Shown: in pieces, positions 23,441-55,800 of the stretch
How positions within the stretch are numbered: position 1 is the stretch's first letter
How the letters are laid out: each line of letters starts with the position of its first letter
NCBI GenBank assembly: GCA_036172245.1
Contig: JAYWIR010000073.1
Location: 124,001 to 188,000 of the forward strand
Direction: 5' to 3'
Source of the DNA: Raillietiella orientalis
Lineage: Eukaryota
DNA length: 64,000 nt
Program-made: the position numbers and the translations under genes
The notes under the pieces: model-generated
What the model saw: the letters and a program-made list of their open reading frames with translations, nothing else
What the model was told of the DNA's origin: nothing
The model's database searches: none

Positions 23441-23494
23441 AGGGCGGACAACAGGCCTCTCGAATTGTTGACCAACTGAGAATAGGCTCCTTCT

Positions 23495-24625
23495 CACTCG
23501 AGTGCGCCGGAGCGTTTATTGCTAAACTATCCAGGAACAGGATTCCCGGACAAAGGACACAGAGGAAACGAAGGGGGGGATCCCCGACACGCAGATCGGA
23601 ACACCGAAAGTCCGGAACGGGAGGCAGGGGACCACAAATACACATATAAAAAAGAGAAATAAAGATATGGGCAGGGTAGGGGACAAGGATCCTTGGTTTG
23701 GCCGTTCCTTTCCTTCAAAACCGGCTATGGATGCCGGTAATCTCGCTCCTAACGTCCCCTGGAAGATAGGCCCACTCGGCAGCCAACGTCTCGCTGGCTA
23801 TTCCGGTGGTCTGTCGACGAATCGCCTGCTTCTCCAGCTCTCGGTGAACCTTGTCGATGGCGCGGGTGCAACAGACTGTTGCGATGACAGCACCTAGAGA
23901 CAGGCCACCTGGCGTGAAGAAGCGGCGCATCAAGTCTCTTGCGGTGTCCCCTTGGTGCAGGAGACCTGATGCCAGCCTCCGCCACAGTCCTTGGAGGGCA
24001 GAGCAGGTGCGGGAGCGTTTCCACTTCCCCGCACCGTTTACGGTTCGGGCAGACAACTCCCCTGGAAACACGGTTCGTCCGCTGGCTGGAGTGAAAACCC
24101 CAATGCACCAGCATCATGACTTCCTGCATCCAAGAAAGGGGGAAGACAGAAGTGTTCAAACAGGAGGAAGGGACCACCAGTTCTTCGCGGGGCACACTCA
24201 AATGTTCGCTCCACCGAAGGAGTCCCTTCGCGATGTTGCGAGGCGTGGCGGCGTCTGCCAGCTCTCAAGTCCTCCAGCCGCCTATGGGGTCGGGCTGCTC
24301 CTGCGATGGTGCAGTCGACCTCCTACTTCGCCGGTAGGCAGCTGTCATCAGCTTGCCCTGAGGGCTGACAGAGCGTCGGCGAGGGGCGTGACGGCAAGGC
24401 GAGTCCACTTCTCCTGGCTGTTCCAGACCTCATCCACCGTACAGTACGGAGAGAGGTTGGCGCAACGGAGTTCCAAGAGGGTAACATCCTGTTGCTTCGC
24501 ACAGGCATGCAACGACTCCTGCCGCCAGGCGTCGAAATTCGTTGGGCGGCAGGAGATCCATGCGTGGGCTACCAGGAGCAGGGAAAGAGGTTTCAAAGGG
24601 AAACCGAAGCTTCTCGTGGGGCGCA
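23495..24625 (-). mobile_element. LINE family B 3' end (inside left inverted-repeat arm; mirrored at ~39100-40230, plus)
   Basis: FGFPLKPLSLLL..HAWISCRPTNFDAWRQE and C..CGEVETLPHLL, homologous to 34172-35335. Ends in AATAAA plus stem-loop. Confidence 0.85.
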
Positions 24626-25720
24626 CTCCTCCGCATGGCCGGAGGAGACCGCTGGCACGTGGGCGAAGATTAATGAGAGGAACCACGAGACGTGGAACTG
24701 CCTGCGAGTCGGCATCTACGCCCGCCGCACTCTGCGTGAAATTCTTGAATTTCCAGCGAGTTGCACGTGGGCGGAAGGGACACCCCTTGCTACGGCGATG
24801 CCCTTCCTCCAGAGGGCGCTTCACAACAGCCGGAAGCCGAGGTGGCAAGTGTACTGCCGTATCGCAGGCAGAGAGAAGATGATGAGCGGCTGGACCATGG
24901 GAGAGGTGACAGACGCTACGACCCCTAGTGCCCAGCCGAGTGGATTAAAAAGACGGGGCGAGCTGCTCGGCATCCGGTCGGATGACCTAAAGTGGCCCCC
25001 GGTTCTAATTGGATCCAGGATTGTTCCCTTGAAGTGGCAAGAGTCGGCGATTCTGTGGCTGCATTGGGGTCTACCCTGCAACGCGCGCCGCTTCCACTGG
25101 ACGCGGGGAAGAGTATATCCTGCGTGTGCCAGGTGTGGGGAGCGGGAGTCCCTCCCCCACCTCCTAGTTGACTGCCCTGTCCCTCCGGATTCTTTGGGAT
25201 CGTCTTGGAACGACCCTCGGGATACCGGTTGGTGGCAACCCAAGAGACGTTTACAGTCTTCTCTTCGTGCGGGACGCCCTCAGTCCAGCCGCAGCCTTGG
25301 CAGCACTTTGCTGCATCCGTGGTATTATGGCGGCCTGGAGTGATGCCGAAGATGAAGATTGCAACGTGACGGACGTCCTCCAGTATGCTGTTCGCTTCCT
25401 GCAGAGAGCTACCCGATGGCCCCAGCTGGGAAGAATGAAGAAGGACCTCGAGGGCATCCTGCAAAGGATAGGCCCTCCCCGTACTGGAATGTGATCCCTT
25501 CCCGCCCCTCCAAACTCTTTTTGTTTTGTTTTTTCTCAATTTTATTTTATTTTTGTTTTCTCCCTCATCCCCTTCCACTGCCGAGGAGAGTCACACCGGG
25601 CTGCGTCCCGGTGTCCCGGCAGGTCCGCTATTGCGTGGCCGTTAGTAAGGCCTTCTACCACGTTCTGTACTGACCGATGAAGAGTTTTTTTAATAAACGT
25701 CCCGGTGTACCCGGGTGGTA
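24626..25720 (+). mobile_element. LINE family A 3' end nested antisense in family B (mirrored at ~38005-39099, minus)
   Basis: LHWGLPCNARRFHW..CARCGERESLPHLLVDC zinc finger, followed by a T-rich and structured 3' UTR and AATAAA plus stem-loop. Confidence 0.85.
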
Positions 25721-26102
25721 TCTCCGGCAGGAGGAACCTGCCCAGGTGGAACGGGCTTAAAACACTCGTAGCCTTCCAAAGGCAGTCCGACCACGCTTCC
25801 ACTGGGCTGATGCTCCCCAGAGGGACGCCTAAGTACTTGAAAGGCGTAGCGGTCGGGATCCCCAGGCGGATCCAGTCGGACTGCCCCTCCCACGCCGCAC
25901 CAACTGGAGCGACCAAGCTCTTGCTCCTGTTTACGCTCATGCCCGCTCCCCGGCGAATCAGCTCGAAGAAATCCTCGAGACTGGGCGCCGGGGTGGACAT
26001 GAGTAAGAGGAGAAGCAGGTCATCGGCATAGACCGCCACGGACGGCGTACTTGGACCAGAGCTCGGCAAGTTGGCCAGCGTCAGCCTATCGCCAGGACGT
26101 GT
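25721..26102 (-). mobile_element. LINE family B RT fragment (mirrored at 37623-38004, plus)
   Basis: VAVYADDLLLL, GMSVNRSKS and FKYLGVPLG, which are canonical RT domains 5-7. Confidence 0.9.
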
Positions 26103-28631
26103 CTCCGTGTCGCTCCCGTAGGTGACAATTGAATTGTAAAGTTCCTGTAATCTTCTCCAAGCATTTACGTTTATATTGTATTTCGTGTATCTTACAGATT
26201 TATATTACTTGTTCACAAGGAATCGTGGTGATACAGTGATTATTGTGGTAAACGAATGGGCGCTTCTTTGGCCGTCCGCAGCTGGTGTAGTTTAACTAGA
26301 AAGCTGTTGATTGGCCAAGGTAAGACTTATTCCCATGTTCTTTTTGAACTTAATATTTTGTAAGAACTATTCAATCTTTTCTAAAGCCTTTTTTTTTTGC
26401 CACTGCGTCGTCAGCAAAATTATCAGTGCAACGCGTGAATTGATTCACAATAGATACTGTCGCATAGCATCCCAGGATCTCAACTCTTAGTGTCGAGCTT
26501 CAATTCCCAATACAAGCAACAACTAGCACTTTCTGCGCTTTCTGGAATAATGTGTAAACCGAAATTTCTGGTCAATCAGATAATTTTTCTTTTTATTTGC
26601 AATACTGGATTTTAAAAATAGCGGCGCGACCATGTGGCGCCGTATGGCAAACTCTTACCGCGCGTAATGAAGTTGGAGTTGCGGCTGTAACCCCAACGCC
26701 GTGCTCGCATGCACTCCTGTACCTTCGTTCGCGCTCGTTTGTGGAAAATTCCCCGTTACTCTGGTTACATGAGAGCAACCACTCCTTGAAACCATGGAAG
26801 TTCAAAAACGAACTTTGGAACCCGCCTTTTTAGACGCCGACCGTGGTTTATTCGTTTGCATTTCGCTTCCACGTCCTTGCCCATTCCTGACTGTAAATCC
26901 GCATCCTCAGCCGAAGAAAGGCACAATGGTTCACGTAACCTGAAGCATCATCTGACACGTAAACATGGTGTAACTCCCCAAAGCTCCACTCGCTTTTGTA
27001 ACCAATGCGATGTTACTGCGGACCTGTCCCACTGTTCCCCCGACTCTCATGAATGTACCCACTCAATTCGAAATGTGGGGCTTCCTCGTCCCCCCCAAAA
27101 GCTTAAATATCCGTGCTCGTCCTGTGGATCCAGATTCGACCGTAAAAGCCATCTCTGGACGCACAAGCGGACAACACATGGCACATCAAGAACCAAGAAA
27201 TGGTTACTACACGAAGTCTTCGACGAAGAACGTGGCACTAGTAACGTAACAACATAGGAACACCCGATCGAAAACCAATCAGCGACTGTGTACCGAAACA
27301 TCAACCACACACCAACTACGGATCAACGCGATTCCTGAACGTCAACCTGACAACAATGTGATTCCCGAACCACAACTTGTAATAACTCCTGGACTGCAGG
27401 AAGCAATGGCTGTTTTCCTGCAACACAAAGACTTATTCCAACCTTTGCCTGCCGAAATTCTCTCATTGACTGATTCTTCCATCTATGTGCAACTGGAAAC
27501 AGATCACAATGCGCAATCACTCCTGGATCCCCGTCCTCTTCATCACCGACATTTGCTGATGTCGTGGAAAATCAGCCTCGCGTGATGCTCACGAAAATTC
27601 AAGCCCTAATGCGTCTTCTCAACGCTCCCCACCCATCACTCAAACCTCCTTCACCATAAGCGGCAGTACATCTCCCATTAAAGTGCGATCCCTCAGAAAG
27701 ATTCCTGTGGCGGCTCAAAGATCCCTGTTGAGAATTCAGCCACAATACATAGCACCACACAAACAATTTCCGTTCCAATACTTGACAGAAAAGACAGCCC
27801 TCCACCTCTCACCTCTCAGCCATTACATACTGCTGCTTCCTTGTCCCCTAAATCTATACAGCGCAACGGACCATCTCGAAAATACCACCACAATCCAATT
27901 CCACCTAGATTCCGAGGATCTTATCGTCAATATGTAAAAACCCCACCTCTTGATCGCGCCCTTGCTACCTCTATTGTGTCCTCACCCCCACTTCCCGATC
28001 TACTACCCCCCCCACTCACGGACATTCCATATCCGCCTATAGCCAACAACGATGTTGCTCTTACATCTAACAACGTCCTTTTATTGCGATTTCCCGTATT
28101 CCGTAGCCCAAGCTTCATAATATTTTCCTCTCCCTGGCGAACACAAACTCTCGATGCCAGCAACACGCTTCGGTCTCTCAAACGCCACTTAACCACTGCA
28201 CAAAAGCTACCTTTTCTCAAACACAAGTTGCACTGTAGGAAATACAACTCAGATGTCTCCTATCATACACACCACCACCCATGGTTTAAACACATCGCTC
28301 CGCCGCAGCTTCCTGTGGCACTCCCTTCTTCCCAATGTAGCATTCCCAACTGTAAAGACACCTTTTCCTCAATGGGTGGATTACACAATCATACTCGATG
28401 GCACAGGCAACTGCAAAATCAACGCAAGAAACCACTTCCTACACGAACCCTTTACACCTACAGCCCTAGAAATGACGGATCACTTACCCACAGCAAACTG
28501 TTTTGACAGCCCCTGAACATCCAAGAGTGCAATCACACTCCCCTGTTTCCCGAACCTCACAACAGGATGCGCCACTCGTACATCTAACTCACCTATATCC
28601 TCTGCGCTCATCCGTCGAACCCGCATCGAAT

Positions 28632-29567
28632 AACCCTTAAGTACAACAGTTACTGCCAAATTTTCAGCATATACTACACAAAAACACACATTCTGTGCTC
28701 AGCACTTACATGCCGAGTCTCACATCCCGATGGATGAGCTGAAGTGACCCCCAGTGTTGAAGGAATCTAGGATGCTGCCCTTAAGTGGCAAGAGTCGGAG
28801 TTGCGACTGTTGCACTGGGGGTTACCCTGCAACGCACCCCGCTTCCAGTGGACCAGGGGAGCTGTGGATCCTGCGTGTGCCAGGTGTGGGGAGTGGGAAT
28901 CGCTCTCCCATCTCATCGTTGATTGTGCTGCCCTCCGACCCCTTTGGGAACGGCTTGGGACGACCCTCAGGCTTCCTATGGGCAGCGCGCCCAGAGACGT
29001 TTTCCGGCTCCTCTTCGTGCGGGACGCCCTGCAGCCAGCCGCAGCCCTCGCAGCACTATGCTGCGTTCGAGGCATCGTGGAGGCCTGGAGCGATGCCCAC
29101 AGCGGAGAGCAAGATTGGAACGAGAGGGACGTCATCCAGCCTGCAGTATGAAGCATACATGCAGAGAGCTGCTGGATGGCCCCAACTGGGACCAATGCGG
29201 ATGGACCTCGAGGGTTTCCTTCGAAGGATGGGCCCTCCTTGCAGTGAATTGTGATCTCTCCCCTGCCCTCCAAACTCTTTTTATTTCTTAATTTTTTTAT
29301 TTTTCTTCTTGTTTTTCCCCGTTCCCTTTCACTGCCGAGGAGAGTCACGCCGGGCTGCGTCCCGGCATGTCCGGTGTTGTGGGGTCGTTAGTGGGGCCTT
29401 GTACCACGTAGTCTGTTGACCAAGAATGAGTTTAAATAAACCTCCCGGCGTATCCGGATGGCAACATCGAGAAACCCTTAAGTACAACAGTTATTGCGAA
29501 TCTTTCGGCATATACTACACAGAAACACACATTCTGTGCTCAGCACTTACACCCCTAGTCTCACATC
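28632..29567 (+). repeat. ~95-bp direct repeat pair (28632-28726 and 29473-29567) flanking the family A insertion
   Basis: aacccttaagtacaacagtta...agtctcacatc is present on both sides, with about 9 mismatches. Confidence 0.9.
28727..29464 (+). mobile_element. LINE family A 3' fragment inserted into the NeSL/Utopia-like element
   Basis: LLHWGLPCNAPRFQW..CARCGEWESLSHLIVDC plus the family A 3' UTR, flanked by ~95-bp direct repeats. Confidence 0.9.
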
Positions 29568-32500
29568 TCTCGTAACAACCAAAATCTAACGATAATTGGC
29601 AAAGTACCATTGACATCCTCAACAAAGTCTTAAATACGATGACTTCTACATTCAACATACGCCCCTTCAACCCTTCTAGAAGACCCACTGCTTCCTGCAA
29701 TGCTTTTCGCCTAACCTCACCAATGCATCTCCAAACCTTGTATTGACGCAACAGAAAGCGAGCCATCCGCACTCTTCTGCACCCCAATCTCATCCAATTC
29801 AACGGCTCTCTATCGACAGTTGAAACCATGTTTAGTGAGAAATTCTCATCAAAGAATGCTAATACCGAAATTCTTCAGAAAAGCTCTTCAACTCTAGCAT
29901 CTTGGGAAGTTAATTGCACAAACATTACCCCTCCGGAAGTTGTGTTCACATTACCGAACGCTCAGGACACTTCCCCTGGAAATGATGGAATGCCCTACTC
30001 TTTCCTTTTGAAAGCTGATCCAGACGGATCTTGTCTTGCTGTCCTTTACAATATTTGTATCCACCGGTTGCGAATCCCTAAAGACTGCAAGAGTTCACGT
30101 ACAGTTCTAATACCCAGATGCGGAGCATCTGATTCCACGGACGTAGCACAATTTCGTCGCATCTCCATCTCCAAAATTGGCAAACTGTTATGCAAAATCC
30201 TCGCGAAACGGTGGTCAACGTGGATCCTCAACAATGGAATCCTTGGACATCATCAGAAGGAATTTCTTCCTTAGTGTTTTAGAACAAAACTTTGTCTTGA
30301 GCACTCTAGTCGAGCGCTCCCGGGTCCACCACAAGGACATTGCCACCGCGTGGATAGATTTTGAGGACACGTTCTCCACCATCCCCCACCAGCTCATCCT
30401 AGACAAGTTGACCATACTAGGGGCTGGTCATCAATTTCATGGTATCATATCCGAAATGCATTCGGAATCTACAACAATTTTAACCTCGGAAGGACCTACC
30501 TACCCAATTCCAATTCTCTCCTGAGTACTCCAAGTGTGCCCTTTGGGTGGTGTATTATTTAACATCGCGCTCGAACCCTTTATCAAAATTCTGAAGCACC
30601 ACCATTCTTCTATAATTCCACTTGCATATGCAGACGATATTGCGCTCATAGCAAGCTCCGTAGATGAGCAACATTTTGCCATCACCACACTTGCAAATGC
30701 AAGCCGTGCTGCAAACTCACAAATCAACCCCAACCAATGCGGCTCGTAGCATTACGTACCCTCCTCACCGCATGTTTAAAATACATCGCTGTCTGTGAAT
30801 GGTACACCAATTTTGTCCCTTTCCCTCCAAGAAACATATAACTATCTAGGAAAACCGGTTGGTTTTGACCCCCTCATGTATTATGGAAGCGTAGATACGT
30901 TCATTACGCGCTTCAAAATTATTGCAGACTCCTCGTTAGTTCCATGGCAGAAACTCGAGGCAATTAAATCCTTTTTCCTGCCATCTTTAGTACACGACTT
31001 ACGCCTCGGTACAAAACCCATATCGTCTTGGGCCAAGATCGACAAAGTAATACGAAATGCGTTCAAGCAAGCTATTCTTCCCCTTACTCAAGGCTCATTC
31101 AATGAATACCTTTACGGGAGTATCCGTGATGGATGCCTTGGGATAATGCTCCGCGTCTAAGAAGCACGAACCATGATAGCTGACTGCCTTTAAGCTCTTC
31201 ACATGCCCGGATCCCATGTGACCGATCTTGCCTTCTCTACCCTTGCCGATGCTGTACGTAGAAAGGCTCACGCCCCACCCGACCTACTCCTGTTTGCACG
31301 ATACCTCAATGGATGCTCTTCGTCCCCCTTAGACCGCCCAAGTGGTGATGCCTGCACGATGTGGTCCGCATTACGGGATGCAATGAAGCATCTATCCATA
31401 ACGTGGAACTTCGAGGATAATAATGTGACGCTCTCCTTGTCCTTTCCAGAGCACAAAAACCCCAAAATTCTATCGTTTCCGCAACGTACACGAGTAGCAC
31501 AAACGATACGTGCTCACTTTAGAGAGCAAAAAGGATTATCACTTTAAGCCAAGCCAGAGCAAGGTAAGACAATGGAATGTGTATCCCTTCACCAAGCCTC
31601 CATGTCATTCCTACCTACCCTCATGTGATGGATTCCGATTTGCAGACTGGCGTTTCATACACCGTGCCTGCCTAAACCAATTATTTCTTAACGGAAATCG
31701 AAAAACACGTGGTGACTTTGAACAATGCCGAAAATGTGGCTACGTAAAAGATACATTGGCCCATGTTCTGCGTAATTGTCCAATCCGACTTGAAACAGCG
31801 ATCACTCGAAGAAATGACTTTGCTGTCGACACACTGTACAAGATTCTCTCCCTTCGATGGCCCGTTGGTCAGAAAGATCGCCGGGTCGATGTGCTGAACT
31901 CCACTTTCCGCTCCGACATTTTCCTACAAAATGCGTCTACAGCTGTGATAATTGACGTTGTGGTCTCTTTTCAAAATTGTGCATTATCTCTGCAGCATGC
32001 TCGAGAAGGCAAAATCCGTAAATATGCGGAGATCGAAGCGGCACTTAGGCAACAGGGCCTGTGCACCAACAACCAAGCCTTTGCGAATGGAGCGCTATGC
32101 TCACGTGATCCCGAAAAGGACAAACTGAAAATTGCTCGGCATCCTTCACAGAACAATCACCTCGATCTCCCGACATCTATGCACCCAACTTATAAAATTC
32201 TCCAGGGACATATTCATCAATCACATCTCTAGGCCCAACCCTCCTGATTATCCAAAGGAAAACCTTGAAGGAAGTCTGCACCATGAGAACCTGGACCAAG
32301 CACACACAGAGTCATGTTCTGTATCTCGAGAGGAAACACAAATCCTCTCCTATCCCAGCATAGATCCTCGAGCAGACGACAACGTTTTCAACGGTCCCAC
32401 TACGTCTCCAATAGTAAGAGCTATCCAGGTACCAACGTCCCTCTAAAGGCGACAAGATACAAAAGACAAATTGAAATGTTCCCCATTAACAACTACGTAC

Positions 32501-32899
32501 TCAAAGACACTTCAAACCCCTGTGAAACGGAGATTCGCAAATTCGTAGTAAACACTGACCTTTATATAGGACAAAAATGTAACAAAATGTGTCGCAATAA
32601 AAACCCCAGCACTAACTCAAAGAAGATGCTGAAAAGCAGAGGGCTTAAGCTGTCTGCTGCCCCGCCGTATGCGGACGCCGTACACTTGGCAGCCGCTGAA
32701 AGAGATACAGCATAACGCTTGGTGCCAGAAGGAGCGCAAGTAGATGATAAGGTGCGTCGGGAGGCCTAGGCGTCCCAGAAGCTCCAGAAGGAGGTCCTCG
32801 TTTATGCAGTCGGACGCCTTGTTTGTCCGGAGTGGACGCGTTTTCTTGGTATTCCTTGGTGCCGAAAACCCTCTGCTTAAAGCGAAGTGTTCTGTAGTT

Positions 32900-33960
32900 C
32901 GGTGGTCGCTCAGGCAGCAATGCCTGACACGACCACCAGTGAGTGCCAGGGGGCGACTGCAACGTCACCCCCAGAGGCGATGGAGGTGGGGCATCCGCCA
33001 CCACAGAATCGGTCCCTGCTGCAGCGCAGGCGTGGAGCGCCGTCGTAGTGGTGCCTACGCATGCAGCCGCGGCGGAATTGAAAGCCTACGTGGAGGAGGG
33101 GTACAACCCCTCACTTCTCTACAAGGTAGGAAATTTGTCTTCTGCTGAGACTGCGCGCGACTTTTCAAAGGCGATGCGCACTCACAACGTTGAAGAGAAA
33201 GAACTCTGCGCGATGACCCCCCGCAGCGGGGGCAGTACGTCGAGGTGATCTGCAAACAGGCAAACAGAACGTCTGCTCAAAACCCCCGTCGGGATGGAGA
33301 AACGCAGGCTTCTTCCCATAACAGTGGACCGCAGAATGGTGGTCCACCTGTTAGGTGTTACAGCGCGGATGCATAGGGAAACCGTACGCGCCGCGTTGCA
33401 ACAATACGGAACGGTGTACGCCCAATGGTCCAAGCCTAGTCTCTTTGTGTACTATACTGTACTACAGTGCGGCCTCTCGGCTGCACGCATCACCGTCCGA
33501 GAGGGCTGTTCTTTTCCCCACAAACTGGTGGTCGCCTCCGAAACTATCGACCCATGGTATGTGGGGAAGCACAAATAATACGGCTTCTGCAATACGTTGG
33601 GAAATCTGAAAAAGCGATGCCTCAACGTGCAGTGCCAGGTTTGCGGGACAACGAACCACACATGGGACGTGTGTCCACAAGCAGCAATGCGGGTGGTGTG
33701 CGTAAGGATCGCCAAAAACCGTGCCAGGCAGCTGCAAAAAAAGTAGGCGGCAAAAGCTTCTGCGAAAGCTGAGCTACCCGCGCCGAAGGTCCAGGCCGCA
33801 CCCGGAACCCCGGTGAACAACTTCGAAAAAGTCGAGAAGAACGGCCACGAGCCTGGATGGCAGCTGGCAACAACCAAAGAAAGCAAGGACTGAAGACAAG
33901 AGAAAACACTCGCGTACCGCAGCAAAATGCAGCTGTGCAGCGAGATAAAAGATTGCAGCG
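32900..33960 (+). mobile_element. L1/Tx1-type ORF1 (gag-like) remnant
   Basis: RRM-like VVHLLGV....RETVRAALQQYGTV followed by zinc-knuckle remnants FCNTLGN...C and CQVCGTTNHTWDVC. Contains a frameshift and stops. Confidence 0.7.
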
Positions 33961-33965
33961 TTGTC

Positions 33966-35355
33966 ATTTGTCACCCGGTTGCGCCGGGATGTTTATTTCA
34001 AATCGTCTGGGAAAAGTGTTCCCAGGCAAGTGGAACAGAAGATGGGGAGGAGGGTTTCCGACACGCAGGCCGGGCACACTGAGAGTTCGGTACGGCAGGG
34101 TAGGGACAATAAATAAATAAATATAGTGGGAGGCTGGGGATAGGGGTCTGTAGTTCCATCCGTTCTTAGTCTCAGAACCGGCGGCGAATGCCGCCGATCT
34201 CCGTCCTCACTTCTTCGTGGAAATGTGGCCACCCGGCAGCCCTTTGCAGGTTGCAGGCTGCGGTGTCGGGGACCGATGTTGGGGCTGCTCGCAGCTGCAA
34301 TACGTGGCGGGCCCTGACAACGGCGCGGACGCAGCAGATGATTACGACGATCGCTTCAAAAGAAAGACCGCCACGCGTGTAGGAGCGGCGCATCCAATCC
34401 AGTGCGGTGTGTCCGGGGTGCAGGAGCGCTGAAGACAGTCGCCGCCACAGTTCCTGGAGGGCACCGCATTCAAACAGCAAATGCGGAAGCGATTCCACCG
34501 CTCCGCATTTGGCACAGTTCGGGGACGCAACTCCCCCGGGAACCAGGTGCACGCGCTGGGTGGAGTACAAACCCCAATGCACCAGCAGAAAAGCGTCCTG
34601 TTTCCACCGAAGGGGGAAGACAGTCGCGTCCAAACACGCAGAAGGGACCACAAGTTCATCGGTGGGCACCCCGAGGAGCTCACTCCACCGGAGAAGCCCC
34701 TTTGCAAGAATGCGAGGTGTGGCAGCGTCTGCCACTTCGCAAGTCCGCCAGCCGCCCAGCAGTCGGGTTTCGCCTGCGATTTCGCAAGTGACCTCCCACC
34801 TCGCCGGCAGGTCACTGTCATCTCGCACCATCAGCGCACACAGTGCTTCGGCGAGTGGCGTAGCGGCTAGGCGTGTCCACTGGACCTGGTCTTCCAGCAC
34901 CTCCCCCACTGGACAGTATGGGGAAAGTTTCACGCAACGGAGTTCCAGACGAGACACATCCTGTTGCGCTGCCCAGGACGATAAGGCTTCCTGCCTCCAG
35001 GCGTTGAAGTTCGTCGGCCGGCAGGAGATCCACGCATGCTTTCCCAGAAGCGAGGCGAGCTGCTTCAGAGGGAAGCCGAATCCTCTCTGGGCGCACTCCG
35101 TGCGCAGGTGCAACGAACGCAGTCCGTCGCCACCAGTGCAGCGCCGCAGCAGCAGCCGCGCTGGAGCACACCAGGGAGTAGTCCAAAGCTGGGCGCAAAG
35201 TGCCAGCATGCGGAACTGCACTAGCAGTCCGATCCGCTCCAGCGTCAGGATGCCCAATCCTGCATCCCGCCGAGGAGCCGCCAAGTCCTTGAGGCGGATC
35301 CTGGACCTCGCCGGTCCCCACAAGGCGTTTCGCAACAGGCGTTGCGCCCGACGCT
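33966..35355 (-). mobile_element. LINE family B 3' fragment with an uninterrupted 387-codon frame
   Basis: ORF 34172-35335 runs from RRDAGLGI to the CAKCGAVESLPHLLFEC zinc finger. The 3' UTR ends in AATAAA plus stem-loop at 33972-33997. Confidence 0.88.
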
Positions 35356-37622
35356 TAGCCGAGTAGGGAGGGGGAGGTAGTTGGAGAGGCTGGATAGCCG
35401 AGAAGGGTCCGATTGGGTGGTGGTGCAGCTAAACAGTGTCTAGAAGATCGATGGAGTCCAGGTGGTACTGGATTGAGATGATATTTTGAAGGTCTTTTGT
35501 GCTGTCGCGATGTGGAAGGTGAAGAAGAGGTGTGTGGTATATGCAAAGTGAGAGGTGGGAAGCAGTTGTTTTGTTTGTGGGTCGCTGGAAAATTTTGTTC
35601 TGTGGAGCTATCTACGGTGTGGAGCGCTCGCCACAGGTGAAGCTTCGCATGGTGTTTCGATCGAATCGGGGATCTCGTCGAGGGATCGCACTTCGGTGGA
35701 ATATTTTTCGCGTAAGGAGTTGCGGAAGCACGGATGCAACCGCTGAGGGATAGCTTCTCGAAGGACACGAATTGTTCTAAGGCGAATATAAGGTGAATTT
35801 GGGGCAGTAATAGGATACTTTGTAGTTTTCTCTAGATGAAGAAAGGATACTGTAGCTTGTAGGAGACACAGAAAGGCACGGCTCAACGGAAGAGTTTGTC
35901 TCAGGATTAGATTGAGCAGGATTAATTGGGAAATGAGTAAATGCCTTCTTAAGTTTTTCCATTCGAATAGGGGAAGAGCGGGCACTAGAACGTGCAGGAA
36001 GTTGTCTTGTTATTGAGGATTTCCTGCAGGCTGAACACGATTTCTGTTCCAAGCTCGGGAGAAAGTTTTGAAAACTTTTCCTATGCATTACTCGGGGCTG
36101 GCGTTTTAAGATGTCTGCATATGAGGGAAGAGATAACGGAGCTTTCAGTGTGGAAGACGGGGTACTATCACTAGGGGTAACTGTTGAACGGAGTTTCCTG
36201 GTCATCGGATGAATATCCTGTTTGTTCTCTATCTTCGAAGTAGCGTCATCGTGGGAGCATGCAGAGAATTAGGCAGAAAGTTTGCTTCGAATTTCCAGAG
36301 GGATAGGCTGAAACGAATCTTCATTATCCAGAAATATTTTCACAGCTTCCTCAGGAGAAGGAGGCGATGGATTCGCAGCGTGCGTCGCAGGCGTTAAAAG
36401 AGGTTGTTCGAGGATGTCGCTCGAGGTCATACAGGAGGCTATTTGCGGAGATTGGGGGAAGTGTGAGTCTTCTAGGGATTTTAGTGGGATATCGTCTCCC
36501 AGCTGTTCAAAAAACTCTGAATGACTTGGGCCGGCTTCCTCATCAAGAAGTTCAAACTCAGATAGTTTCTTAAATTTTGATGTGCCATGCACACTTTGGT
36601 TGTACTTCACGCGAAAAGCTTTGCGGTCGAAGCTAGAGGAACAGAACGCACAGGGAAACTTCAACTTTTTCAAGGGAAGCGGAAGTTCCAATGTTCGAGT
36701 GGATTGAGTGCACTTATGGGAAGCAGGAGAATATTTCAGAAGGTCGGCAGGAAAGTTGCATTCATTACAAAAGCAAAAAGTACTTTGGGGGGCTACACTA
36801 TGGATGCGTGAGATATGGTGTTTCAGGCTTCTGGAGCGATTGTACGTTTCTTCAGCTGAGGAAGCAAACTTGCATCCCTCAACTGGATATGGGTATGGTC
36901 GTGGGAGGGAAACACACAGATATAGGCATCTGCTGGAGTCTAAGAAAGTGGACTTGGAAGACGGTTTTAAACTTTCCATGCTGAACATGTCATGAGGCAA
37001 ACAAAATTATATCGGACAAAAGGTCAATGGACATCCTTAAGAATTACTGCGAAACCTTCAGAAGTACAGGCGCCATCGTGAGCGCCATGGGCATGGTAAA
37101 AAAAAAAAAAAAAGAAAGTTTTCCAAATACGAGAGACAGAGAGTGAATACTTTTCTATACACGAGCAGTCGATAAGCGCAATACAGGAACGCTGTCACGT
37201 GCCTAGCGCGAAGTGCGTGTGGGCTACAAGCATGCCAAGTGGGCGCTCCGCCATCTTGGAAAATATCAATGCTTGCAATACAATTGTACGTAAAATCACG
37301 TTTCAATCACAATATTGCAAAGCATCAAATGTTTTAAAAATTAGCGCAAAGCTAGCATTAATCAAATCTATGCAATGTCTTGACAGCGACAAAGCAAAAT
37401 CTCTTACCTTGGCCAACCAACAGCGCTCTAGTTAAACCGTAGCAGCTGCGGGCGACCAGAGGAAAATCCGTATTTTGGAAAACAACTAAACTATCACACC
37501 AATTTTATGAACACCCAGCTAGAGTACGTATATAGGTATTACAAAAAAAGAAATAATCCCACATCGTGGCAAGAACAATTTCCAACACTACATGAACTTT
37601 TACACGCCCGAGCTACGATCAA
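35356..37622 (-). mobile_element. Second, diverged NeSL/Utopia-like element, 5' part only
   Basis: ORF 36269-37000 is homologous to the 26794-27250 zinc-finger region (FLD..R.L..C.SLPRP; ASSAEE..N.SR.LKHH; KLK.PC..C.S.FDRK). KYHLNPVPP matches KYHHNPIPP at ~27880. The upstream non-coding region is also homologous. Confidence 0.8.
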
Positions 37623-40206
37623 ACACGTCCTGGCGATAGGCTGACGCTGGCCAACCTGCCGAGCTCTGGTCCAAGTACGCCGTCCGTGGCGGCCTATGCC
37701 GATGACCTGCTTCTCCTCTTACTCATGTCCACCCCGGCGCCCAGTCTCGAGGATTTCTTCGAGCTGATTCGCCGGGGAGCGGGCATGAGCGTAAACAGGA
37801 GCAAGAGCTTGGTCGCTCCAGTTGGTGCGGCGTGGGAGGGGCAGTCCGACTGGATCCGCCTGGGGATCCCGACCGCTACGCCTTTCAAGTACTTAGGCGT
37901 CCCTCTGGGGAGCATCAGCCCAGTGGAAGCGTGGTCGGACTGCCTTTGGAAGGCTACGAGTGTTTTAAGCCCGTTCCACCTGGGCAGGTTCCTCCTGCCG
38001 GAGATACCACCCGGGTACACCGGGACGTTTATTAAAAAAACTCTTCATCGGTCAGTACAGAACGTGGTAGAAGGCCTTACTAACGGCCACGCAATAGCGG
38101 ACCTGCCGGGACACCGGGACGCAGCCCGGTGTGACTCTCCTCGGCAGTGGAAGGGGATGAGGGAGAAAACAAAAATAAAATAAAATTGAGAAAAAACAAA
38201 ACAAAAAGAGTTTGGAGGGGCGGGAAGGGATCACATTCCAGTACGGGGAGGGCCTATCCTTTGCAGGATGCCCTCGAGGTCCTTCTTCATTCTTCCCAGC
38301 TGGGGCCATCGGGTAGCTCTCTGCAGGAAGCGAACAGCATACTGGATGACGTCCGTCACGTTGCAATCTTCATCTTCGGCATCACTCCAGGCCGCCATAA
38401 TACCACGGATGCAGCAAAGTGCTGCCAAGGCTGCGGCTGGACTGAGGGCGTCCCGCACGAAGAGAAGACTGTAAACGTCTCTTGGGTTGCCACCAACCGG
38501 TATCCCGAGGGTCGTTCCAAGACGATCCCAAAGAATCCGGAGGGACAGGGCAGTCAACTAGGAGGTGGGGGAGGGACTCCCGCTCCCCACACCTGGCACA
38601 CGCAGGATATACTCTTCCCCGCGTCCAGTGGAAGCGGCGCGCGTTGCAGGGTAGACCCCAATGCAGCCACAGAATCGCCGACTCTTGCCACTTCAAGGGA
38701 ACAATCCTGGATCCAATTAGAACCGGGGGCCACTTTAGGTCATCCGACCGGATGCCGAGCAGCTCGCCCCGTCTTTTTAATCCACTCGGCTGGGCACTAG
38801 GGGTCGTAGCGTCTGTCACCTCTCCCATGGTCCAGCCGCTCATCATCTTCTCTCTGCCTGCGATACGGCAGTACACTTGCCACCTCGGCTTCCGGCTGTT
38901 GTGAAGCGCCCTCTGGAGGAAGGGCATCGCCGTAGCAAGGGGTGTCCCTTCCGCCCACGTGCAACTCGCTGGAAATTCAAGAATTTCACGCAGAGTGCGG
39001 CGGGCGTAGATGCCGACTCGCAGGCAGTTCCACGTCTCGTGGTTCCTCTCATTAATCTTCGCCCACGTGCCAGCGGTCTCCTCCGGCCATGCGGAGGAGT
39101 GCGCCCCACGAGAAGCTTCGGTTTCCCTTTGAAACCTCTTTCCCTGCTCCTGGTAGCCCACGCATGGATCTCCTGCCGCCCAACGAATTTCGACGCCTGG
39201 CGGCAGGAGTCGTTGCATGCCTGTGCGAAGCAACAGGATGTTACCCTCTTGGAACTCCGTTGCGCCAACCTCTCTCCGTACTGTACGGTGGATGAGGTCT
39301 GGAACAGCCAGGAGAAGTGGACTCGCCTTGCCGTCACGCCCCTCGCCGACGCTCTGTCAGCCCTCAGGGCAAGCTGATGACAGCTGCCTACCGGCGAAGT
39401 AGGAGGTCGACTGCACCATCGCAGGAGCAGCCCGACCCCATAGGCGGCTGGAGGACTTGAGAGCTGGCAGACGCCGCCACGCCTCGCAACATCGCGAAGG
39501 GACTCCTTCGGTGGAGCGAACATTTGAGTGTGCCCCGCGAAGAACTGGTGGTCCCTTCCTCCTGTTTGAACACTTCTGTCTTCCCCCTTTCTTGGATGCA
39601 GGAAGTCATGATGCTGGTGCATTGGGGTTTTCACTCCAGCCAGCGGACGAACCGTGTTTCCAGGGGAGTTGTCTGCCCGAACCGTAAACGGTGCGGGGAA
39701 GTGGAAACGCTCCCGCACCTGCTCTGCCCTCCAAGGACTGTGGCGGAGGCTGGCATCAGGTCTCCTGCACCAAGGGGACACCGCAAGAGACTTGATGCGC
39801 CGCTTCTTCACGCCAGGTGGCCTGTCTCTAGGTGCTGTCATCGCAACAGTCTGTTGCACCCGCGCCATCGACAAGGTTCACCGAGAGCTGGAGAAGCAGG
39901 CGATTCGTCGACAGACCACCGGAATAGCCAGCGAGACGTTGGCTGCCGAGTGGGCCTATCTTCCAGGGGACGTTAGGAGCGAGATTACCGGCATCCATAG
40001 CCGGTTTTGAAGGAAAGGAACGGCCAAACCAAGGATCCTTGTCCCCTACCCTGCCCATATCTTTATTTCTCTTTTTTATATGTGTATTTGTGGTCCCCTG
40101 CCTCCCGTTCCGGACTTTCGGTGTTCCGATCTGCGTGTCGGGGATCCCCCCCTTCGTTTCCTCTGTGTCCTTTGTCCGGGAATCCTGTTCCTGGATAGTT
40201 TAGCAA
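37623..40206. repeat. Right arm of the 2584-bp near-perfect inverted repeat
   Basis: Reverse complement of 23519-26102. Confidence 0.97.
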
Positions 40207-40235
40207 CAAACGCCCTGGTGCACCCGGGTGAGAAA

Positions 40236-43440: not shown

Positions 43441-45259
43441 CAGCTTCCGGATTTCTCTCGCTCGAGATTTTAAACTAGACTCCTTTCCGATGAGCGTACT
43501 GCATGGCATCACGTGTTTGCTTGAGGAAGGAGGACTCAAGTTAGGCAATTCCCTCCTAAACCCGTTTGTGACTAGATGACAGGAGAAACCATCAGCACGT
43601 TCCCAGTCTGCCTCACGGAATCCGAAACAAAATCAGCAAAATTTCCGCAACAAGAGTCTTCAGTGAAGCAAATAGGAAGGGAACAGATGGGAGGCCGACT
43701 ACTGTGGCCACTGGCCAATGCAAGCAGGCTCCGGTCCGCGATACACGCTTGTTTATTTTCTCATGCGAGCATCCTATCACCATCGTGTCTTGTATTAATT
43801 GGTAACATTGCCCGCGAATATGAGGATCCGTGTCCACGATGGTAAATAGCCAACCATGATATGTTTTGGATGATGTGGCCGCATCCGTACCTGATGCATG
43901 GGGAAAAACATAGGGGTAGCGAATCATCAGAGTAGGCAACAGTCGTTCTTCGATTCTCTGAAAAAAAAAAAATGGTTATAATTTCTCGAAACGAAAGCAG
44001 TCAACATTCTTCGGTCCCTGGATCGTAAACACACATCGGTAGCCAACCATTTACATGATAGAGACAAGACTATCTTTGTAATCTCAGCATTCCCATTGCT
44101 ATAGCAGTAAATGTCATCCAGTTCCAGAATTTGCCTTCTCCAGTAATAGAGTGGCTCTTCTTGAGTTTTCCGTACAATAAACACATCCGAAAAAGAAAAC
44201 AACTTCCAGAATAGCTTAGTCGAATCCATCGACTTGTAACCTTCATACAAAGCTTGTCACTCTGCTGTTTCTTCTTCCAATCGGTTTCGAAACGCTGTTA
44301 GGAGTCGAAAATTTCCGCTCCTCAATTCAAATCAAAAGGGACGAGGGCTGTTCGCAGCATCTGGAGAACGAAAGGTAATGAGAAGGAAGACGTAGAAAAA
44401 TTGACGTAAAAAGAAAACTTGTGACGATAATTTGATTGGTGGTCTCTTTCACTGCTCTTCCCTTATATTCTGTGGATTCGCTGCGTCCACGAGGAAAGTA
44501 TGAGCATTTCTGCTGATACTTGTGGGTATTTGACAGTTCATATTCTTCGAAATTGATCGGTTCCAAAGAATAAGCTAATTATTCATAGATTTTGGCGGAA
44601 GACTAGGAGCACCTTGCATAAATTTATTGAATGTTTGCAAAGATACATATATAAAGGCAATAAAAATTTAAATCATTATTTTGATAGGAAGCATAAATTG
44701 CGTAAGCATAAGCATAAATCATAACATAAATTTATCAATTTGTATTCGCCACCATAATTAAAGATGTCACGCTAACAAAATAGATAGTCGGAGAACCAGT
44801 TTCCCAATAATCTTAACTGTAACTTTCATTAATTTTATATGAAATGTTATGCAAAATCATTTTGATTTCTCCAAAAACAAAAAGACAAAACACTGTAGCG
44901 TTTATTTTTTTGTTGAAATGACAGAGATTTTAGCAACTTGATTTTGAAAGGAAATTTTCCTTCTGCATAATTTGAGATTCTCTAATTATCTTTAAAATTC
45001 CGTATCCTTATATTATTGTGGGAATGAGCTATTATGCGACAGTCAAAATTGTATTCGTAATTAAATAAATGTTATGTTTAAGGTTTGGTAGTTCCCATAA
45101 ATACCAACCATCTTATAGTACTGGCAAAGAGCGCAAGGGAGCGAATTTGGTGTCTGTTAGCGGCATGTTTATGGTAAAAGGGACTAATTATGTTTATTTC
45201 ATTCAATTTTGTGAAAACCTATAGTTTCTGTTTTAGTGTTTACTAATATTTGGTGCACA

Positions 45260-52461
<7,202 letters not shown>

Positions 52462-52815
52462 ATTACGCCTCCACCACAGCACAAAATATCATGGCATAGG
52501 TCTCTGGAGCACGTTATTATATTTTACATTCGCGTTCTCTAAAGGCCTATGGAACAGCAAAATAGAGCTCATCTAAAGTTCAGACTGTTACATCACGTGG
52601 CGCTCCGAAAGTGTTTAAAAACAGATTTTCTGTTGTTGCATGAATGCATAATGGATACGAGACTGTGCCCTCAGTTGTCAAGGAAGCAGCCATGTTTGAT
52701 GCCATATGCCATTTGTAGAACAGGATTGTACCATGATAGTGATCCACAAGTGATGACTGAATCAGTGTTAAGAATTCTTCAGTTTTCTCCACTTTTTCAG
52801 TATCTGCTCTATTGA

Positions 52816-52825
52816 AATAAATAAA
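52816..52825 (+). promoter_or_regulatory. Probable DHX15 polyadenylation signal (overlapping AATAAA pair)
   Basis: AATAAATAAA about 355 nt downstream of the stop codon. Confidence 0.55.
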
Positions 52826-55800
52826 AACTCTTGGTAAACCCAGAGTCTAAGCCTTTGGTTTAGACTTGAATCACACTCAACTACATTCCCCTTGCATCAT
52901 TTCACAGTAAGTTAGGAGCCTTCTTGAAAAACGGATCCCAAGACATCCAAGCAGAGGTGCTGCTTATTGGGCTTCCATTTTATGAGCAATCCTTCTGGGC
53001 ATGTGATGCCCCAAAGTGACTTCATGTTACTGTGTGGCAGTACGTACATGTCTGGGTCCTTTTGATTCTTGCTGTGTTATAAATCATTTTTGTTGTGATT
53101 GTCTTTTCTGAAGAGCATTTTCTCGACTCAGCCGCCCTGTTCCCTTGAGAACGTCCGTGTTTCCCTTGACCAGTGCTATGTGTTTTAGTAACGGTGCAGT
53201 GCAGTTTTTCGTTTCGATTGCATGTGCCGAGGGCGTTTCCTATTTTCTTGTCACCACAAGGGGATTATAATTCGAGTGCTTGTTTTCTCCGTTCCCCATT
53301 ACGTGCCACCGAGCGTGGTGACTTATTGAAAACAGCAAGCTTTCTGCCTGATTACGTGTGCAAGCAGCGATGTGTGATCGCGTGGTGCACGCGGGTGTTC
53401 TGCGGAAGACATGGCGTGTTGATGAACATGTGTTGCCGTCCCTTCCCACCCCCCACCCCCCCATCAACCGTATCTGAGGTGTTGGATGGTGTGCGATCCG
53501 TCACATACGCGTGTTCCATCCGGAGATCTCGTGTTGAAAGTTCTGTCGCGCGCCTCGTTGTTCACATTTGATCTCCGTTTGGTACAGCGGGAGCCGTGAT
53601 GTGGCTGCACAGCTCCCCCGCCCAAGGTCTCAATTTGCTTTGGTCTGTGTGTGCCGTGCTCTGCGTGAATTGGCGCCGCTGCGTGTTCCTCGCCTTCGGC
53701 CGCACCTTCAACAAAGTCCCTGAAGCGGCAAGTATTTCCGTGAGTACCTTCTGTACAGTGCAAGTTCTCCATCTGTGCTCTGTACAGTTTTCGAAACTTG
53801 GAACTTTACGCCGTTTCCCCCTTTTCCTGCGTTTGCCGTGAAGCTCTCCTAAATTGAGGGCCACAGGGCAAGTCCGCTTTCGCAGTCTCCAAGCTGGAGT
53901 GCTCTTCGCCGTTTCTCCAAGGGAGCAAAGAGTACTTTCCACGATTTTCAGTGGAGCGCCAATTCATCATCTCGGACCCTTCCCTTTGGGGGATCTGTGG
54001 ACGGACAAAGAGCAATTTTTCAATAAAGTTGAAATCATTGAAAGATCCTCTGCAACTCCTCTTTGTTTGCGAGTCTTCGGAACTCATCCTAACATGTAGG
54101 TAGAGTCACTGCATAGCAACCTTATCTACCCATCCTTAACTACCTGGAAACCTTTGCACGCGTTCTTTTGCTCGTTCTGGGATGATATGATTCTTACTTC
54201 GCATCCTGTTCAAAAGTGGAAATATTTGCAAGAAATTCAACGTGCCTTCCGTAAAATGATCGCATGTATGCAAAATGAGATCCTGCTCCGCTTCAACGAA
54301 GGTGTGCAAACAGATTGTCGTTGGGTGATACCGAGCGGTGTGCACCCTGCGGCCCACGGAGCCTTCGGGAGGGCAGCAAGATTTTCCGAGGTTGGTGAAA
54401 CGCGCCAAAGCGTTCCTGGAAACTCCAGGAAGAGGTGATCGTGTTCGTCGGTATGGATGGCAGTCCGATGTCCCCGAAACGGAAGGTTGGCTTCGCGGTC
54501 GAGCACTTCGCGCAGACACCCCTTGCCGTTCCTTGCAAACGCAGGGTCAACCCCACACCCCTTTCCAGCGAAACAGCTCGCTCGGCTGCCACGTCGCCGC
54601 CTTCCCAGCAAGACCCCGGTCCAGCCGCCCTTGCAACGCGTGCGGCAGTCGGCGGACGCAATCCGGGAAGGAACGGAATGGGGGGGGGGGCGGGTCGGGA
54701 GCCCGCGGAGGAATCTGGATGCGGCTGCGAAGATTTCCTGCTCCGTTCTCGGACCGGCCCACCAATGGCTCCTCCGGGATTCCCGGCGCCGGCTGAGCCC
54801 ACTCGACCGCCCCCGCGGCAGCACGGGAAGCGTTGCCCGCCCCACGGTCTGCCCACGCGGTGCGGCAATCTCTCGGACGCGCGTTCCGCATCGGCCGCAG
54901 CCGTAGAAACGAACCTTCCGTCCTTCCGCTCGAACGTTGCGCGTTCGCGCAGGCGCCGCCGCCGGCAGGGGTGCCACAAGCACCGAATGCGAATTGGGAT
55001 TCGGCTTCTTGCGGTTGCGCGGGGAAAGCGTGGCAGCCCTCGGGGGGGCGGCGGGTGAACCTTTGCTGTCCGGAAAGCAATCGCGCTCGAGTCGAGGTCG
55101 GCTTGAGGAAAACGCGCTGTGGATAAAAAAAAAAGGCGACGCTCCTGCAGATCGGGATCGGCCGAGAAAAACAGCTGATCCCTCCGAGGGTTGCACGGGA
55201 CATTCCGGCGCCTTCTCTTCCCTCCCGTTTCGCGACGTGCTTCGCGGATGCGGTGGCTGTGCAACAGGAGAAGCTTTTCCTTCTGGTTTCCTCTGGTCCC
55301 ACCCCCGCTACTGACAACCTGGAAAAGAGAGCTGCCCAGCGGTTGCACCGGAAGAGCCGGAGAGGCGCTTTAATGTAATGTAAAACGAAAACCAAATAAA
55401 AAAATTGGCTGTTAAAAACTTTGAATGTAAGCAGTTCGAGCGCCTTTGTGTGAAACGGTGATACCCCTCTCGTTTCTGTGCCGAGCAGCAGTCCGTTTCC
55501 TTGCGCAGCGCATGGCAGAAAACCATGAGAGCCAAATGTAAAGCATCGTGTTGAAGACACAGCTGTCTGTTGGTTGCTGCTGTTGTCTTTTGAGACGTGC
55601 GTTTTCGGATTAGGGTGGAAAATTTTTTATGGATGCTTGCTGATGGCATTTCGACCTTCCATCTGGCTAATGGGGAAGACTGGAGGCAGAGGTACCGACT
55701 TTAAGGTTTCAAGGCCGCCTGGATGATTCTGGTCGGAGAATGAAATGTCAACAGCTCGCAGTATTTTATATCCGGCCTTGCAAACCCCTCTGCCCCTGGA

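Follow-up and report, generated by a model that had tools for sequence, protein, structure and literature searches.

In the 64,000 nucleotides of Raillietiella orientalis DNA analysed here (the window; contig JAYWIR010000073.1, positions 124,001 to 188,000), two retrotransposons without long terminal repeats (non-LTR), copy A and copy B, share a short conserved block upstream of their zinc-finger open reading frames (ORFs). The block is likely to be the 3' end of a first exon with a splice donor used in cis, and would form part of an RNA polymerase II module, composed of a downstream promoter element (DPE), an exon and a donor, that is carried by a site-specific retrotransposon with a restriction-like endonuclease (RLE). 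An earlier note on this DNA had considered a captured or targeted spliced-leader (SL) exon implying trans-splicing in this animal, an element-borne 5' exon and intron, or promoter motifs. The second option is supported by a copy in which the donor is joined to an internal AG, by the conservation of the donor among 28 copies and by the layout of sister families in 28S ribosomal DNA (rDNA). The elements insert repeatedly and sequence-specifically at one nucleotide position of the reverse transcriptase (RT) gene of a long interspersed nuclear element (LINE), in antisense orientation, with loss of about 1 nt and without duplication.

Conserved block and splice donor

Both blocks lie where the earlier note had placed them, at 26276-26325 (+) in copy A, with the GT at 26320-26321, and at 37451-37402 (-) in copy B, with the GT at 37407-37406. 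In the family alignment the conserved 3' end of the putative exon 1 of copy A spans 26270..26319 (+); the conserved exon end and donor of copy B cover 37402..37457 (-). Allowing up to three mismatches, the core pattern matches the window at these two blocks only, with a chance mean of 0.05, and the blocks align at 83% identity over 60 nt (E 1.7e-10). Taken by itself, the shorter donor pattern stays within chance, two matches being reached in 15 of 100 shuffles. That the block is conserved above its surroundings, as had been claimed, is borne out by a comparison of six family-A and seven family-B copies: A and B are 82% identical in the block, 44% in the 155 nt upstream and, with gaps counted, 22% downstream. 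Identity of the block within families is 86%, near that between A and B.

The genome search gave 21 matches with the block and 26 with the leader of the minus copy, together at least 28 loci that form two families, A and B, with one member of each in the window. Genome-wide copy counts are lower bounds, and L125 was left out of the block counts because its 5' end is missing. All 28 blocks found sit about 220 nt inside retrotransposon 5' ends. The GT is kept in 27 of these copies, in agreement with the strong donor proposed earlier, and the donor AAG|GTAAGA of copy A (26320..26325, +) is complementary over 7 nt to the 5' end of U1 of this genome. The donors precede the first ATG of the zinc-finger ORFs (26794 and 36979) by 474 nt in copy A and 428 nt in copy B, as had been estimated.

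Downstream of the donor, copy A has a putative intron in its 5' untranslated region (5'-UTR; 26320..26793, +) with a second block conserved between A and B near 26616. The presumed intron contains seven ATGs in A and ten in B. A candidate acceptor in copy B (36977..37005, -), supported by family-B copies, consists of a pyrimidine run and TTCAG|C, a single base upstream of the start codon at 36979. Among the nine family-B copies listed, six have AG|(C/T)ATG, two keep the AG and have lost the ATG, and one has lost the AG. The second conserved block near 26616 is a module of AAGATGGCGG, a YY1-like motif, and CACGTG (26616, +; 37257, -), which stands in opposite orientation in the LINE-targeting families and in 28S families (the C72 and C83 relatives).

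The copy L017/L037 is the 28th copy, the one without the donor GT. In it, CCAAG is joined directly to the RT-proximal coding sequence that follows TATTTTTAG in intact copies, so that the donor meets an internal AG whose homologous position in copy A is, by alignment, 29826..29835 (+). A total of 3.1 kb is missing; what remains includes 200 nt of upstream exon as well as the 5' flank and the junction at the 3' end. None of eight other internal deletions has GT-AG ends (gaps of 840 nt in the deletion scan are an insertion in the reference). For one of nine deletions placed at random to begin no more than a base away from the donor, the chance is, by a rough estimate, about 1 in 200. L017/L037 looks as a spliced retrocopy would, which suggests that the donor can be used in cis.

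Relatives in 28S rDNA

Relatives were obtained by a protein search and from 30 genome stretches, six of which held no 5' end; they include elements inserted antisense in 28S rDNA. In a sister 28S family all 13 copies have a GT donor right after the exon end and the motif RGWCGTKY 227-229 nt upstream, at their first bases. These copies were found by an exon-end pattern that contains neither the DPE motif nor the donor. A DPE-like motif and a donor occur in three more diverged relatives, and a donor in a fourth. Of the block, the sister families retain only AAG|GTAAGA and the spacing between it and the 5' end (about 200-230 nt). Their exon sequence is unrelated to the block, for which 20 loci of more distant relatives gave no match (best E 0.026).

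In a tree of the post-RT region the LINE-targeting clade (support 100/100) lies inside a radiation specific to this genome (100/99), with 28S-associated members on two separate branches. The radiation stands beside a U2-flanked element and arthropod proteins, with support of only 88/82 for the neighbouring branch. The tree has 50 rows, does not include named NeSL, R5 or Utopia references, and has an imperfect outgroup. A change of target from 28S to LINE is suggested by this topology, and only suggested because 14 rows have no assigned target.

Further relatives were noticed in these searches. At L134 (G000:C81:71500-81499) one 28S-associated RLE element is nested in another, and both have long open frames (1249 and 924 aa); the outer one has a 1.9-kb presumed intron containing several CGCCATCT repeats. 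The element at L136 (G000:C12:870500-880499) is closely related and has both DPE and donor; CRE-, GC-box- and CCAAT-like motifs, not 28S or LINE sequence, precede it. In L181 and L177 several 'U2' matches are U2 3' halves after an A-rich element end, that is, Utopia-type insertions.

The shared layout bears on the main rival to cis-splicing, namely that the block is conserved as DNA, with sites for internal promoter or enhancer factors, the donor match being a by-product and the joined copy a rare dead end or a DNA deletion. In human L1 a donor is retained owing to the RUNX3 site that contains it (PMC5860796). Several palindromes in the block, the lack of a conserved acceptor in family A and the single joined copy would also fit sites in DNA, and the flipped orientation of the intron module suggests control at the DNA level. 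Against it, the sister families keep AAG|GTAAGA at its distance from the 5' end but not the sequence upstream of the donor. Individual motifs also vary: the E-box CAGCTG is present in 16 of the 28 copies and the inverted CCAAT in eight. We consider this explanation unlikely. The promoter-motif option of the earlier note fares accordingly in part only, since these two motifs are poorly conserved; a promoter-type motif does exist, but it is DPE-like, lies at the 5' end and was not mentioned there.

A further alternative is that the block is an RNA hairpin bound by the protein of the element as a 5' recognition element, and that the terminal RGWCGTGT is an integration signal and not a promoter. 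The block can fold as a 19-pair hairpin, with 85.6% of cells paired and a z-score of -3.3 in copy A. Yet the z-score of copy B is only -1.7, covariation stays within that of shuffles (27/500; 53/500 for paired cells), and RNAalifold gave no consensus pair. Folding of the 5'-terminal 140 nt is no better than that of shuffles. As a replacement for the exon and donor reading the hairpin is quite unlikely, although a hairpin is compatible with that reading and does not exclude it.

Spliced-leader explanation

If the block were a captured or targeted SL exon, the organism should trans-splice. Trans-splicing is described in copepods and amphipods (PMC6053224), and SL1 genes are the insertion site of NeSL-1 (PMC7650587). 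The block ends in AG|GT with a strong donor, and a hairpin can form adjoining it. SL genes are multicopy; their splice junction falls within stem-loop I and they usually carry an Sm site, although divergent Sm sites exist (PMC6053224). The genome data do not show such genes. The exon-core pattern has 19 matches in the genome and none in a reversed control; these 19, which all belong to the 28 loci, and the 21 and 26 BLAST matches are all in element 5' ends, so that the leader was seen only inside these elements. No stand-alone or tandem copy was found by these searches, whose counts are lower bounds.

The features of the block itself point in the same direction. The GGTTT start that had been compared with nematode leaders is found in one of the 28 copies, which is the minus copy of the window. 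An Sm-like site (RAU4-6GR) occurs within 130 nt of the donor in three copies, all near-copies of each other, in line with the earlier remark that no convincing Sm site is conserved. The donor is outside the hairpin, which ends 3 nt before it, and the 132 nt from GTTT onward fold like shuffles (z 0.47 and 0.19). Sequence of the element, and likewise of the joined copy, extends about 200 nt beyond the 5' end of the 31-mer. The insertion target, which lies 220 nt upstream of the block, is a LINE gene, and other exons precede the same donor in the sister families. An Rfam scan of the window gave chance-level matches only, with no SL RNA and no ribozyme. We therefore regard the SL exon as very improbable. 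Trans-splicing in this organism gains no support here; it is neither shown nor excluded.

The elements and their target site

Copy A (26092..32603, +) is a full-length, decayed RLE non-LTR retrotransposon of family A, antisense in the host RT gene. Its broken ORF (26794..32232, +) encodes C2H2 zinc fingers (zf-C2H2, E 6e-4), RT (RVT_1, E 3.6e-7), CCHC and the RLE. The RLE domain of a family copy matches R2 structures, the C-terminal part of the protein aligning with R2 residues 999-1136 (E 1.2e-7). The order of RT, CCHC and PD-(D/E)xK-type endonuclease follows from the RVT_1 match, from this alignment and from a P-D..D..K pattern seen in translations. Copy B (35372..37633, -) comprises the 5' 2.2 kb of a family-B element, 88% identical to a full-length B copy; the 3' part is lost and the remainder is joined to LINE ORF2 sequence. 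Both the fixed 3' end and the variable 5' truncation at a specific site are those of an RLE non-LTR retrotransposon. A Myb domain was not found in an intact relative, either by Pfam or against the R2 N-terminus, and the best protein matches are from arthropods, at 35-40%. On present sequence comparisons, the best reading is that these are R2-like site-specific RLE non-LTR retrotransposons related to Utopia and NeSL. Copy A also contains a LINE 3' fragment (28723-29461) flanked by a 103-nt direct duplication of 89% identity (28624-29567 in all).

The flanks of the elements are the two halves of a LINE RT, not a U2 small nuclear RNA or SL gene, nor, for the LINE-targeting families, the canonical 28S site. 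The 5' flank of copy A up to the target half-site (25722..26091, -) encodes residues 662-783 (YADD half) of the ORF2 of an L1/Tx1-type LINE, as seen by tblastn with an intact host ORF2 (81%) and by junction alignment. Comparison with the host ORF2 assigns residues 585-658 (KAFD to QGDS half) to the 3' flank of copy A (32604..32820, -) and again residues 662-783 to the 5' flank of copy B (37634..38003, +). The latter is part of a 2.6-kb inverted duplicate of the flank of copy A (23491-26115 and 37610-40234, 99.7%), which ends in the GGACGTGT motif common to both families. The first bases of copy A are of family-B type, which suggests a recent gene conversion or inversion, or an assembly artefact.

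The insertion point lies between the QGDS (641) and YADD (681) codons of the host ORF2. The host LINE has a zinc-knuckle ORF1 and a 1203-aa ORF2 with Exo_endo_phos (apurinic/apyrimidinic endonuclease, APE) and RVT_1 domains. It is abundant, with young copies 98.7% alike and with 4103 search candidates, 150 of which were scored. Empty sites read GTCAGCCTGTACG-C-CCTCAGCACC and are contiguous in all 28 hosts listed. The upstream half-site adjoins 27 of 28 full-length 5' ends, and the downstream half-site follows 21 of 23 3' ends (15/16 found by the 3' UTR and 6/7 found otherwise). Seven of 13 5'-truncated copies, which have differing break points, adjoin the same upstream half-site (six by score, L127 by eye). 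Each of the two main host subfamilies includes sites filled by family A, sites filled by family B and empty sites.

The possibility that the flank belongs permanently to the element was discarded, since truncated copies share the half-site and the flanks follow the host subfamilies. A short part of the flank could nevertheless be carried by the RNA. At filled sites the last 25 nt of the flank are 0.87 identical versus 0.62-0.80 further up, which is a weak test as empty sites reach 0.84. In the 28S family 12 of 13 flanks depart at two shared positions from the form seen in L134 and L174. Among the B copies, three that sit in different host subfamilies have a one-base deletion in common. Both are signs that a target-like stretch moves together with the element.

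The same host RT gene has two further fixed sites at which LINE families of APE type are inserted antisense. One is 41 nt upstream of the site described here (L113-L115, L122), and the other is in the KAFD codons (L123, L127 and the window at about 32820), with a duplication of about 26 bp in L127.

Proposed mechanism

In Doc, F, G, I and jockey, RGWCGTKY is the DPE, located at about +29 to +36 (PMC1636488). The DPE-like motif GGACGTGT of copy A (26095..26102, +) agrees with this consensus at 8 of 8 positions, and a motif search located the one of copy B at 37623..37630 (-). The motif is perfect in 21 of the 28 LINE-targeting copies, 193-227 nt before the donor, with a background frequency of 2.6e-4 per position. 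Counted by hand from the A of CCATTC (28S target) the motif is at +28, and counted from the A of GGCAGGTT (LINE target) it is at +29.

Because an antisense insertion cannot ride on the transcript of its target, the element would be transcribed by RNA polymerase II as a unit of its own. The DPE would set the start 24-27 nt upstream, which must be in target-like sequence because the motif occupies the first bases of the element-specific sequence, beginning at +1 to +4. The RNA would then carry a short target-homologous 5' end (24-27 nt) for precise 5' joining. In the presumed intron with its upstream ATGs, and with the TTCAG of family B before the start codon, splicing from the donor would remove 7-10 ATGs and produce a message that can be translated, whereas unspliced RNA would be the usual template for new copies. 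U1 binding that is not followed by splicing may be relevant as well. That the module acts as a promoter and that the donor is normally spliced are both inferred from these sequence features.

Several observations weigh against the exon and donor module as described. The copies are not all independent, about seven of the 28 loci being near-identical duplicates, and the two 5' flanks in the window are not independent of each other. The site is not used without exception: two of the 23 3' ends (L070 and L137) are off-site, and six of the 13 truncated copies do not have the 5' half-site (five have other sequence there and one starts at a contig end). An initiator-like A stands at the right distance from the motif, but by hand count the match to an initiator is weak in the LINE target (5/8) and reaches 6/8 in the 28S target. 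Only one of the 28 copies looks spliced. The acceptor used in it lies far inside the ORF, and the join is followed by a G where the six family-B copies listed have T. In L125 another deletion, which ends by microhomology, stops 3-6 nt away from this AG, so that the spot may be deletion-prone. No copy without the presumed pre-ATG intron is among the copies found, a clear acceptor was not seen in family A or in the 28S family, and the C19 relative has no donor before its ORF.

A wider scenario can be built on the proposed module. An R2-like lineage may have been freed from the promoter of its target by a polymerase II module with a start in target-derived sequence, first in antisense orientation in 28S and then with a switch to the LINE RT gene. 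Correct insertion would complete the promoter, and the transcript would bring its own 5' homology arm. We put this forward tentatively, as a scenario that falls somewhat short of being probable.

Comparison with known retrotransposons

Members of the Utopia/NeSL clade target U2, SL, 28S and tRNA genes as well as microsatellites (PMC4640811). Like them, the present elements have one ORF that begins with zinc fingers and goes on with RT, CCHC and RLE, insert at specific sequences and do not duplicate the target. A U2-flanked element of this genome is on the neighbouring tree branch. They differ in having the coding sequence of a LINE, in antisense, as target. R2 and NeSL-1 are co-transcribed with their targets, SL1 in the case of NeSL-1 (PMC7650587), whereas the present elements contain a DPE-like motif and a donor of their own. 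With R2 (PDB 9nl3, 9dou, 8gh6) there is homology in RT and RLE, and the small target deletion is shared. R2 RNAs typically retain about 28 nt of upstream target for the 5' joining step (PMC13580325), which is the length predicted here from the DPE spacing. However, R2 resides in 28S and is cut by a ribozyme from a polymerase I transcript (PMC13580325), while the window has no Rfam ribozyme match and the intact relative no Myb match.

Mobile elements as targets are known from the Tx1 clade, with Tx1 in Tx1D, Tx1-Mar in Mariner-N4_AMi, Tx1-8_Crp and Tx1-4_AMi in LTR elements and Tx1-9_AMi in Harbinger (PMC4494074), partly in opposite orientation. Those LINEs are of APE type and enter DNA transposons or LTR elements, whereas the elements described here are of RLE type and split the catalytic region of a LINE RT at one nucleotide. 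Penelope has a DPE and a 5' intron with a conserved donor (PMC2377424). RGWCGTKY near the 5' end is common to Penelope, to Doc, F, G, I and jockey and to the present families, and Penelope further resembles the latter in its leader donor and in keeping the intron in genomic copies. In those other retroelement classes the motif is at about +29 inside the element, whereas here it is at +1 to +4 of the element-specific sequence. Human L1 yields spliced integrated retrotransposed elements (SpIREs; PMC5860796). L017/L037 resembles these in the joining of a 5'-UTR donor to an acceptor inside the ORF, but it is a single case and belongs to an RLE element. A literature search, which included PMC5035012 and did not extend to Repbase Reports, most subscription papers or supplements, found no RLE element that targets a LINE gene or carries this 5' module. 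Since transposon targeting is already known for APE-type Tx1, what appears to be new is an RLE-type element in a LINE RT gene with a 5' module of its own.

Other features of the window

Twelve other ORFs in the window have no Pfam match. At 44000-53000 an otherwise GC-rich LINE island is interrupted by an AT-rich stretch (29-45% GC), whose minus strand carries two strong matches to a donor (45465 and 47568).

Significance

Site-specific RLE retrotransposons have been described as passengers of the RNA genes that they target, and the families found here depart from that. Two long-diverged families strike one nucleotide of the RT gene of another retrotransposon, and their relatives strike 28S backwards. 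Within one genome an R2-like endonuclease can thus be followed through a natural series of retargeting, and the position of either target is known to a single base. This opens target switching and the joining of 5' ends to direct tests, a matter of relevance for gene insertion based on R2. The shared layout of DPE, exon and donor provides a concrete answer to the question of how such elements may be expressed without co-transcription. If the wider scenario of a switch from 28S to the LINE is true, the LINE-targeting lineage would be a site-specific parasite that breaks the element in which it lands.

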